NCBI GenBank assembly: GCA_947625315.1 | Contig: CANQOE010000001.1 | Span: 1 to 30,349, forward strand | Origin: an uncultured Bacilli bacterium | GTDB taxonomy: Bacteria > Bacillota_I > Bacilli_A > RF39 > UBA660 | Length of the DNA: 30,349 nt | Reading direction: 5' to 3' | Shown here: one piece after another, positions 9,957 through 12,243 of the stretch | Layout: every line of letters begins with the position of its first letter | Numbering within the stretch: position 1 is the first letter of the stretch | The notes under the pieces: model-generated | Database searches by the model: none | Told to the model about the DNA's origin: nothing | The model's input: only the letters and a program-made list of their open reading frames with translations | Program-made: the position numbers and the translations under genes

Positions 9957-10658
9957 ATGAAAGTAGTAAAAAAAATAATTATAAGTTTAATTGTTGTTTT
10001 AGGGGTTATAGCTTTTATTTTAGGAAGTTATATAATTTATAAAAATAAAAAAGTTTATGAAGCTCAAGATTTTAAAATTACGCCTATTATAAGTGAGGCA
10101 GATGCTAATAACAATGGCATAGATGATTATACGGAAATAATGCTTGGTGCAAGAGAAGATGCCATAAATCACCCTAAATATGATGGTTCTTATTATAATG
10201 GTGGATATCCCCCTGATGATATTGGAGTCTGTACCGATGTTGTATGGCGAGCTTTTAAAAAAGCGGGTTATGATTTAAAGAAAATGGTTGATGAAGATAT
10301 AGCTAAAAATAATGATACAGTATATAAGTTAGCTAAAATAGATCCTAATATCGATTTTCGCAGAGTAAGAAATTTATATTATTTTTTTGAACGCAATAGC
10401 GAAGTTTTAACAACAGATATAACAAAAATAGAAGAATGGCAACCAGGAGATATTGTTATCTTTGGAGAAAATCATAATCATATAGGTATTATTAGTGATA
10501 AACGCAATAGTAAAGGGATTCCTTATTTAATTCATAATAATAATCAACCTTTTAGAGAAGAAGATGTTTTAGAACGTTATAGCAAAAAGTTTATCGCTGG
10601 TCATTATCGTTTTAATACTAAATATGCGCAAAATTTAGAATATTTTAAGGAGGATTAG
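9957..10658 (+). CDS. DUF1287 (YijF-like) membrane-anchored protein
   Basis: GVCTDVVWRA, IDFRRVRNL, WQPGDIV, HIGI; N-terminal TM anchor. Confidence 0.8.
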   Translation: MKVVKKIIISLIVVLGVIAFILGSYIIYKNKKVYEAQDFKITPIISEADANNNGIDDYTEIMLGAREDAINHPKYDGSYYNGGYPPDDIGVCTDVVWRAFKKAGYDLKKMVDEDIAKNNDTVYKLAKIDPNIDFRRVRNLYYFFERNSEVLTTDITKIEEWQPGDIVIFGENHNHIGIISDKRNSKGIPYLIHNNNQPFREEDVLERYSKKFIAGHYRFNTKYAQNLEYFKED

Positions 10659-11367: not shown

Positions 11368-11396
11368 TTGATTAAATAGATAATTTATGGTATATT
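11368..11396 (+). promoter_or_regulatory. sigma-A promoter of sRNA A
   Basis: TTGATT-17 nt-TATATT with TG extension; conserved in unit C. Confidence 0.75.
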
Positions 11397-11400
11397 AAAT

Positions 11401-11514
11401 ATGTCAGAGAAATCTGCATAAAATAAAAAAGGATACATTTGAATGTGGAATCAAATGCTTCCCATAATAAGAGGTAGCATCTGAAATCAACAAAGGTTGA
11501 AATCAGATGCTTTT
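11401..11514 (+). ncRNA. Putative antitoxin sRNA A (~112 nt), antisense to the 3' part of the microprotein A mRNA
   Basis: Own promoter; CAGA-GAAA-TCTG hairpin; CATTTGA/TCAAATG stem; terminator AGCATCTGA...TCAGATGCT-TTT; no ORF. Confidence 0.7.
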
Positions 11515-11515
11515 A

Positions 11516-11593
11516 TTATTTATATAGTAAGGTGATTACTATGAAAAATAATAAGAAAATTATAATAAATAGAGATTGTTCTCTTTTTGTCAT
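11516..11593 (-). CDS. 25-aa hydrophobic microprotein MTKREQSLFIIIFLLFFIVITLLYK (putative type I toxin)
   Basis: GAAAGGCGGTGA SD; single TM-like stretch; paralogous to 12090..12167; own promoter. Confidence 0.8.
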   Translation of the reverse strand: MTKREQSLFIIIFLLFFIVITLLYK

Positions 11594-11656
11594 AATATCA
11601 CCGCCTTTCATAAAAGAAAGGGGAAGCATCTGATATTTTCAAATGTATCTATATAC

Positions 11657-11685
11657 ATTATACTAAACTTTTAGCTTATATGCAA
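11657..11685 (-). promoter_or_regulatory. sigma-A promoter of microprotein A
   Basis: TTGCAT-17 nt-TATAAT-GTATA; same architecture in all three units. Confidence 0.8.
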
Positions 11686-11755
11686 GGAAATAATTAATTT
11701 AAAATAAAATACTTGTCAAAAAATTTGGAGAGCACTAAATCTTTGTAAACTGTAT

Positions 11756-11806
11756 TCATAAAAATAGACAGATAGGAAATAAGATTAACAAATCCTTTTT
11801 CTTCAT
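11756..11806 (-). CDS. 16-aa microprotein MKKKDLLILFPICLFL (degenerate or truncated paralog; 23 codons to TAG at 11735 if the TGA is a nonsense mutation)
   Basis: GAAAGGGGG SD, GATATT-ATG context as in unit A, paralogous promoter. Confidence 0.5.
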   Translation of the reverse strand: MKKKDLLILFPICLFL

Positions 11807-11869
11807 AATATCAAGCCCCCTTTCTAAAATGAAAGTTGGCAAGCACTCATATTGTTAAACTTCCTATAC

Positions 11870-11898
11870 ATTATAGTAAACTTTTTAATTGAATGCAA
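11870..11898 (-). promoter_or_regulatory. sigma-A promoter of microprotein B
   Basis: TTGCAT-17 nt-TATAAT-GTATA; spacer contains AAAAGTTTA as in units A and C. Confidence 0.7.
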
Positions 11899-11943
11899 GA
11901 ATAAATAAATGAATTAATCTAGTTTTTTTATGATGTTTTTATC

Positions 11944-11972
11944 TTGCAAAAAATGATAATTTATGATATATT
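11944..11972 (+). promoter_or_regulatory. sigma-A promoter of sRNA C
   Basis: TTGCAA-17 nt-TATATT with TG extension. Confidence 0.75.
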
Positions 11973-11976
11973 AAAT

Positions 11977-12088
11977 ATGTCAGAGAAATCTGCATAAAAT
12001 AAAAAAGGATACATTTGAATGAGCAATCAAATGCTTTCCCAGTTTGGTAAGCATCTGAAATCAACAAAAGTTGAAATCAGATGCTTTT
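11977..12088 (+). ncRNA. Putative antitoxin sRNA C (~112 nt)
   Basis: Same three-hairpin layout as sRNA A; terminator AAGCATCTGA...TCAGATGCTT-TT. Confidence 0.7.
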
Positions 12089-12089
12089 G

Positions 12090-12167
12090 CTATTTTAGAA
12101 GTAAAACGATTACAACTAAGAATAGGAGTAATATTATAATAAATTGAGAAAATTCTCTTTTTGTCAT
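12090..12167 (-). CDS. 25-aa hydrophobic microprotein MTKREFSQFIIILLLFLVVIVLLLK (putative type I toxin)
   Basis: GAAAGGTGGTGG SD before ATG 12167; paralog of 11516..11593. Confidence 0.8.
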   Translation of the reverse strand: MTKREFSQFIIILLLFLVVIVLLLK

Positions 12168-12243
12168 AAATACCACCACCTTTCTTTTATCTTTTGACAA
12201 TTGAAAGGGAAAGCATCTGATATTTTCAAATGTATCTATATAC

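Follow-up and report, generated by a model that had tools for sequence, protein, structure and literature searches.

Why should the two ends of a short toxin-like message be inverted copies of each other, and what would pairing between them do to the translation of that message? The question is raised by contig CANQOE010000001.1 of assembly GCA_947625315.1, from an uncultured Bacilli bacterium of the RF39 lineage UBA660, of which we analysed positions 1 to 30,349 of the forward strand (the window, in what follows, is this whole stretch of 30,349 nucleotides (nt)). Here a 950-bp gap between rpmF and an open reading frame (ORF) of 917 amino acids (aa) is filled by three tandem cassettes, units A, B and C. 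The organization of units A and C is that of type I toxin-antitoxin-like cassettes with a 3'-overlapping antitoxin, the toxicity being putative. Folding models indicate that their toxin mRNA is a closed molecule, in which the first ~30 nt are paired with both arms of its own terminator hairpin, and it is predicted that this clamp slightly opens the ribosome site instead of silencing it.

On the minus strand, units A and C share a near-consensus promoter of the form TTGCAT-17-TATAAT, a leader of 56-69 nt, a very long Shine-Dalgarno (SD) sequence GAAAGGYGGUGR and a 25-codon ORF, followed by a post-stop hairpin, a second hairpin and a U6 run. The 12-nt SD and the -35 and -10 boxes are present in both, and the 25-aa products have a charged N-terminus and a hydrophobic core. 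The -10 box of the unit A toxin promoter, TATAAT (11662-11657), lies 7 nt upstream of the predicted +1, and its -35 box, TTGCAT (11685-11680), 17 nt further upstream. The features of the two units are as follows.

11425 to 11649, minus strand: predicted toxin mRNA of unit A, 225 nt, with a +1 G at 11649 and ending with the U6 run at 11425.
11638 to 11649, minus strand: 5' strand of clamp helix 1 of unit A, mRNA nt 1-12, an exact inverted copy of 11432-11443, paired in the minimum free energy (MFE) fold.
11432 to 11443, minus strand: 3' strand of clamp helix 1 of unit A, doubling as the 3' arm of the terminator hairpin and adjoining the U6 run.
11621 to 11634, minus strand: 5' strand of clamp helix 2 of unit A, box X plus CCC (repeat I11).
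11450 to 11463, minus strand: 3' strand of clamp helix 2 of unit A, box X', doubling as the terminator hairpin's 5' arm (repeat I11).
11598 to 11620, minus strand: SD hairpin of unit A, consisting of CUUUC, a loop, and GAAAG with the long SD GAAAGGCGGUGA.
11516 to 11593, minus strand: toxin-like ORF of unit A, 25 aa and a stop codon, MTKREQSLF... hydrophobic core ...LLYK.
11476 to 11511, both strands: post-stop hairpin of unit A (X', loop, X; repeat I8), which on the plus strand reads as the terminator of the antisense RNA.
11403 to 11519, plus strand: predicted antisense (antitoxin-like) RNA of unit A, about 117 nt, with the promoter TTGATT-17-TGnTATATT at 11368-11396.
12001 to 12236, minus strand: predicted toxin mRNA of unit C, 236 nt, with the ORF at 12090-12167.
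12225-12236 with 12008-12019, and 12207-12221 with 12026-12040, minus strand: clamp strands of unit C (repeat I9).
11979 to 12093, plus strand: predicted antisense RNA of unit C, with the promoter TTGCAA-17-TGnTATATT at 11944-11972.

The initial annotation had described the ends of the toxin message as long-range mirror images, and all its coordinates and sequences proved correct. In unit A, 11432-11443 is an exact inverted copy of 11638-11649, and the second pair, 11450-11463 and 11621-11634, is complementary at 93% over 14 nt, its sole difference being a G.U pair on the minus-strand RNA. Thus, nt 1-12 of the mRNA pair with the 3' arm of the terminator and nt 16-29 with its 5' arm. The corresponding pair in unit C, 12026-12040 and 12207-12221, spans 15 nt, again with 93% complementarity, and has gained one base on each side relative to unit A. 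This gain had been read as a compensatory indel, which is genuine for the comparison of A with C, but it is a single event, and a paralogue on another contig (C55) carries the 5' insertion without the 3' one; most relatives show a U.U mismatch at this position. The 3' copy was also held to be the message's own terminator, and we likewise predict one there, with the U6 run at 11425-11430 following a local hairpin of -13.2 kcal/mol. A simple terminator scan missed it on account of the interrupted stem, and the call is based on the fold together with the U6 run.

When the full-length mRNAs were folded with RNAfold, a check that the annotation had proposed, the clamp was present in the MFE structure of both, at -77.9 kcal/mol (z-score -12.9) for unit A and -83.7 kcal/mol (z-score -11.4) for unit C. 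The duplex between the 5' 34 nt and the 3' 42 nt has an energy of -36.0 kcal/mol in A and -37.3 kcal/mol in C, as against -10.6 +/- 2.7 and -10.7 +/- 3.0 kcal/mol in dinucleotide shuffles, none of which reached the observed value in 2000 trials per unit. The closed form lies below the open form by 11.3 kcal/mol in A and 15.1 kcal/mol in C, and refolding into the clamp from the open form (a local 5' hairpin and the terminator) would have to cross an estimated barrier of only about 10 and 6.5 kcal/mol, respectively. Once released, the RNA should refold quickly into a kinetically stable clamp.

To place these structures among their relatives, species-representative genomes were searched with a motif lying outside the clamp, namely the U-run together with the 5' hairpin of the antisense gene. 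This search recovered more than 120 contigs, nearly all of them from the guts of animals and humans and labelled as uncultured Bacilli, Tenericutes or Mollicutes, and 154 distinct units were extracted from these contigs and the loci found earlier. Nearer to the window, its own genome (1.08 Mb in 142 contigs) holds two further full copies of the cassette, and 10 of the 44 genomes in the genus contain the 25-aa ORF. Of the 154 units, 72% form a cognate 5'-3' duplex at or below -30 kcal/mol, a level reached by only 0.8% of non-cognate pairs, defined as pairs with no 8-mer in common in the 3' segment; a strong clamp is absent in 36 of the 154. Seven clusters can be distinguished among the units, with different peptides and with clamp strands of unrelated sequence, and in each of them the 5' end pairs best with its cognate 3' end. 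Furthermore, the clamp is part of the MFE structure in each of the 113 fully analysed units, with a mean gain of -15.4 kcal/mol over the body and the terminator folded separately. The RNAalifold consensus of 26 members of the window's own family is likewise the clamp, in which three pairs show compensatory changes and two others show G.U alternation; these pair counts come from RNAalifold and our own scripts, and a rank-wise table of pairs is descriptive only, since duplexfold gives canonical pairs by construction. In 108 of 112 units the first clamp-paired base lies 6-8 nt past a -10 box, so that the clamp begins at the predicted +1.

The differences between clamp arms further reveal which strand is under selection. 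Read on the toxin strand they comprise 239 G.U pairs as against 8 A.C mismatches, and the duplex of the opposite strand is 5.9 kcal/mol weaker than that of the toxin strand, a difference that has the same direction in 102 of 110 units and in the averages of all 6 multi-member clusters. This asymmetry points to selection on the minus-strand (toxin) RNA, and neither on a DNA repeat nor on the antisense transcript. At the level of sequence, comparative analysis thus establishes the complementarity of the ends, its conservation and its specificity for one RNA strand.

What such closure would do to translation depends on the region from the SD to the start codon. A hairpin sequestering the SD had been noted, and it is indeed present in the form of CUUUC/GAAAG in unit A and CCUUUC/GAAAGG in unit C; it covers the 5' half of the SD, but the SD core, GGUGGUGA, is formally unpaired. 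We computed the cost of opening the SD-to-AUG region, taken as the ribosome-binding site (RBS), by constrained folding of 112 units under four conditions. The mean cost was 10.7 kcal/mol in the closed full-length mRNA, 12.6 kcal/mol with the 3' untranslated region (UTR) blocked as a mimic of the bound antisense RNA, 13.1 kcal/mol with the 3' clamp strand removed, and 12.8 kcal/mol in the nascent RNA up to the stop codon. The closed form is less occluded than the blocked form in 86 of the 112 units and more occluded in 9, the 6 multi-member clusters all agreeing in sign, and removal of the 3' arm raises the predicted cost in 96 units, by a mean of 2.4 kcal/mol. In unit A the cost is 11.0 kcal/mol in the closed state versus 13.7-14.7 kcal/mol in the open states, and the SD hairpin has 5 bp when closed and 8 bp in the nascent and open folds, because the freed 5' strand of the clamp (AUAUCA...CCCC) extends the helix. 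In another cluster an anti-SD CCUCC lies within the clamp strand.

The predicted antisense RNA, of about 115 nt and with a promoter of the extended -10 type, ends at the complement of the post-stop hairpin and overlaps the last ~95 nt of the toxin message. By prediction it spans only the stop codon and the 3'UTR and stays clear of the ribosome site; in unit A it covers the toxin mRNA from nt ~131 to nt 225, a stretch in which both 3' clamp strands (11432-11463) lie. Its fold in unit A consists of a 5' hairpin with a GAAA loop, a copy of the toxin leader hairpin and the terminator. The antisense -10 box is found 8 nt ahead of the GAAA hairpin in 106 of 114 related units.

With moderate confidence, we favour a logic of the bsrG/SR4 type in which the terminator itself serves as the 3' strand of the clamp. 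While transcription is under way, the free 5' arm would fold into a small local hairpin and lengthen the helix over the SD. Once the terminator hairpin had formed and the RNA had been released, the 5' end would invade the terminator. The resulting clamp, ~11-15 kcal/mol below the open form, would pair both termini and pull the anti-SD bases off the SD helix, leaving the ribosome site occluded but least so of all states. The antisense RNA, fully complementary to the 3' ~95 nt and hence to the 3' strand of the clamp, would probably dock on the exposed loop of the post-stop hairpin and displace the 5' arm, whereupon the SD helix would be re-extended and a long duplex offered to RNase III, which the genome encodes together with RNases J, Y and R. 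The transcript ends, the order of refolding, the effect on translation, the cleavage by RNase III and the toxicity are inferences here.

The leader has a second potential partner. The initial annotation had noted that the 5'UTR element could pair alternatively just after the stop codon, and the box at 11624-11634 is indeed 100% complementary to 11502-11512, directly past the stop codon (repeat I16). Forcing this pairing yields a domain-swapped fold that retains helix 1, encloses the ORF and lets the post-stop hairpin's 3' arm capture the 5' arm of the terminator, at 6.2 kcal/mol (A) and 7.7 kcal/mol (C) above the MFE. In 24 of the 26 family members a pair links the variable 5' position to the post-stop box, and in only 11 of the 26 does that post-stop base pair with its own hairpin partner; across clusters the signal for post-stop pairing is weak (rank of the cognate partner 0, 0, 1, 1, 1, 0 and 2). 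The notion of a multi-state RNA switch keeps its mutually exclusive folds, its conserved 5'-3' helix and the terminator as 3' strand, while the silencing direction attached to it is probably wrong. The multi-state idea is plausible, though few evolutionary events underlie it, and any control of termination is purely speculative. A bolder form, which we put forward tentatively and regard as doubtful, would have the ~35-nt 3' element act successively as intrinsic terminator, as anti-anti-SD partner in the clamp and as landing site for an antisense RNA that mimics the leader, giving in combination with the duplicated X/X' boxes a three-state switch (nascent or open, clamped, and swapped with the ORF enclosed) throughout a superfamily of toxin cassettes carried by reduced-genome gut Bacilli.

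Several observations weigh against the bsrG-type reading. The transcripts, their ends and their structures are here predictions, a search for sequencing runs having listed none of RNA, and the cassette peptides match no known toxin family: six of them, compared with Pfam (including Hol_Tox) and NCBIfam at E-values up to 10, drew in only transmembrane-like noise. Within the window's own family compensatory events are few, and the most informative and variable pair is broken in 5 of the 26 members. Moreover, the units are phylogenetically related, so that the counts overstate independence, and the cross-cluster result is the robust part. As to the ribosome site, the SD hairpin of unit C has 6 bp in the closed and open MFE folds alike, and the predicted shift is a modest ~2-4 kcal/mol derived from nearest-neighbour thermodynamics. 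In every state the toxin RBS is far more occluded than that of ordinary ORFs in the window (median 5.4 kcal/mol), and toxin translation, by these models, might be off regardless of the state of the clamp. Given this occlusion in all states, the clamp would modulate a mostly-off gene.

The small size of the predicted translational effect would suit a clamp that is mainly a stability device, whose paired termini would shield the mRNA from RNase J at the 5' end and from 3' exonucleases. This would give a long-lived toxin message of the kind that type I systems require, and the clamp would have no role in translation. The extent of the helix, from the predicted +1 to the U-run, and the presence of RNase J, Y and R genes are consistent with such a role, for which a simple 5' hairpin and a terminator would already suffice. 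It leaves unexplained the anti-SD bases inside the clamp strand in six clusters (CCC, or CCUC elsewhere), as well as the second conserved partner of the 5' box past the stop codon. We therefore consider it rather unlikely as the whole account, though it survives better than the other alternatives.

The annotation had instead drawn its analogy from hok and aapA, where fold-back silences the mRNA until it is processed; the clamp would then keep the message inert and slow 3' exonucleolytic trimming would activate its translation. Closure of the 5' and 3' ends is a hallmark of hok and aapA1 (PMC5416894), and the closed form here is both very stable and, at 10.7 kcal/mol against the 5.4 kcal/mol of ordinary genes, well occluded at the RBS. 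The direction of the analogy is not supported, since the predicted antisense RNA overlaps the 3' end, part of which trimming would delete as antisense target, and since the RBS is predicted to be less occluded when closed in the majority of units (the 86 of 112 given above), loss or block of the 3' strand raising the opening cost. Constrained folding led us to reject this as the leading model, and we regard it as improbable.

Still less probable, in our estimate, is a termination switch, in which pairing of the 5' box with the post-stop box would free the post-stop 3' arm for the 5' arm of the terminator and so regulate read-through over the antisense promoter. The swapped fold lies within reach of the MFE at the energies given above and contains an antiterminator-like hairpin of -14 kcal/mol, and the post-stop box is paired by the variable 5' position more often than by its own hairpin partner (24 versus 11 of 26). 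Helix 1 nonetheless still adjoins the U-run in this fold, so that a stem by the U-tract forms anyway, and the cross-cluster signal is weak, with a covariation that amounts to one or two evolutionary events. Finally, a DNA-level inverted repeat devoid of RNA function (a duplication relic, cassette ends or a protein site), for which one may cite the near-copy of the toxin leader held by the plus-strand antisense gene, as an inverted duplication would leave, has next to no probability and was rejected on the strand asymmetry described above, complementarity being moreover kept in seven clusters with unrelated arm sequences, and the conserved sequence reaching, with both promoters, past the repeats.

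Between the two intact cassettes lies the third, which has the following extent.

11690 to 11905, minus strand: unit B, a decayed copy of a different toxin family, with a 16-codon ORF and a leader in common with an intact unit (L021).

Its terminal clamp strand, its terminator and its antisense gene have all been deleted, and its best 5'-3' duplex is a weak -14.2 kcal/mol. The peptide family is of the type MKKKDLL.../MHKKDFL..., and the antisense gene has left as its only remnant a TTGTCA (-35) near 11714-11719. That a unit without antisense gene should also have a truncated ORF is an indirect hint, read from its sequence, of toxicity of the peptide. A comparable case in the second subfamily (L046, at ~34478 on contig C1 of genome G006) has a stop at codon 5 and a replaced leader, with the 3' element and the antisense gene intact, and is apparently another disarmed toxin.

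Other relatives depart from the standard layout in different ways. The C55 paralogue mentioned above (L004/L052, genome G000, ~2631-2898) joins a leader and ORF of the unit C type to a 3' clamp strand of the unit A type, with its extra base uncompensated, and looks like a product of recombination between paralogous cassettes. Solo terminator-like 3' elements with an antisense promoter and a GAAA hairpin, lacking the upstream toxin ORF and the 5' clamp strand, are found at L009 (G000 C5, ~10279-10311) and L017 (G019 C7), and may be orphan antitoxin-like small RNA genes or remnants of cassettes. Tandem arrays of two or three cassettes, 350-480 bp apart, are seen in other metagenome-assembled genomes (MAGs; L109, L136, L106 and L116), so that the tandem arrangement in the window is typical of the family. 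One cassette of the second subfamily is split over two contig ends (L006/L055 at the end of G000 C111 and L007 at the end of G000 C72), and the same is seen at G017 C32/C33; repeated cassettes evidently break short-read assemblies, and copy numbers in MAGs are therefore underestimated.

Within the toxin coding region we also observed a small conserved hairpin, GAGA/variable loop/UCUC, at 11572-11583 and 12146-12157 on the minus strand, which corresponds to codons 4-7. The start codon itself is paired in the MFE fold. The conserved K-R-E-x-S residues of the toxin may in part be a reflection of RNA structure. Searches with other collections returned little: the Rfam scan at gathering thresholds detected one tRNA elsewhere in the window and the scan at E<=10 only noise, unit A had no match in the phage and plasmid collections, and a literature search found no paper on type I toxin-antitoxin systems in RF39, nor any mention of such systems among the 15 top-ranked papers for Mollicutes/Tenericutes.

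If the bsrG-type model is true, an undescribed toxin/antisense superfamily is present in many copies in uncultured gut Bacilli whose genomes measure ~1 Mb, and it would use the bsrG principle in a more compact form, a single element terminating the message, clamping it and receiving the antitoxin. The natural diversity of the seven clusters, with over 100 variants, offers a covariation data set on how an antisense RNA binding at the 3' end controls a distant ribosome site. The analysis also corrects the default view that 5'-3' closure of a toxin mRNA always amounts to hok-like silencing.

Among the known systems, the par locus of the Enterococcus faecalis plasmid pAD1 (fst RNA I/RNA II) has oppositely transcribed direct repeats that allow RNA II to pair with the 5' region of RNA I. 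The cassettes resemble par, in features described in part in PMC3834814, in their convergent transcripts, their bidirectional terminator region and a 5' structure that would limit toxin translation and decay, but their repeats are inverted, which makes the antisense RNA a copy of the toxin leader and not its complement. In hok of plasmid R1 it is the RBS that closure sequesters, and the antisense RNA attaches to the processed mRNA at its 5'/RBS region. With hok/Sok and aapA1/IsoA1 the cassettes share closure of the full-length mRNA between its ends, transient local 5' hairpins and mutually exclusive folds. In aapA1 of Helicobacter pylori the SD becomes free upon 3' trimming, and IsoA1 attaches to the 5' region (PMC5416894); in the cassettes, unlike in either system, the antisense RNA is predicted to lie over the 3' end and the RBS to become tighter upon truncation.

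The nearest mechanistic counterpart is bsrG/SR4 of B. subtilis, studied by Jahn and Brantl, in which helix P1 pairs nt 1-35 with nt 232-262, and binding of SR4 to the 3' region renders nt 1-33 single-stranded and lengthens the SD helix from 4 to 8 bp, followed by cleavage by RNase III (PMC3834814). Membership of this family by sequence was looked for in Pfam (Hol_Tox, PF16935) and Rfam (BsrG RNA) at E-values up to 10 and none was found, so that the likeness would be one of mechanism and not of sequence, known for bsrG from probing and for the cassettes from predictions. In both systems the gene for a small hydrophobic peptide faces a convergent antisense RNA over the 3' end of the mRNA, the first ~30-35 nt are paired with a 3' segment inside the antisense target, the SD sits in a short helix, and RNase III is encoded in the genome. 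When the 5' strand is released, this helix grows in bsrG from 4 to 8 bp by measurement; for unit A growth from 5 to 8 bp is predicted, and unit C keeps 6 bp in its MFE folds. The systems differ in that the terminator of bsrG, SL4, is a separate hairpin downstream of P1, whereas in the cassettes both arms of the terminator provide the 3' strand of the clamp, which adjoins the U-run, and in that the duplicated X/X' boxes of the cassettes give a second predicted fold that encloses the ORF.

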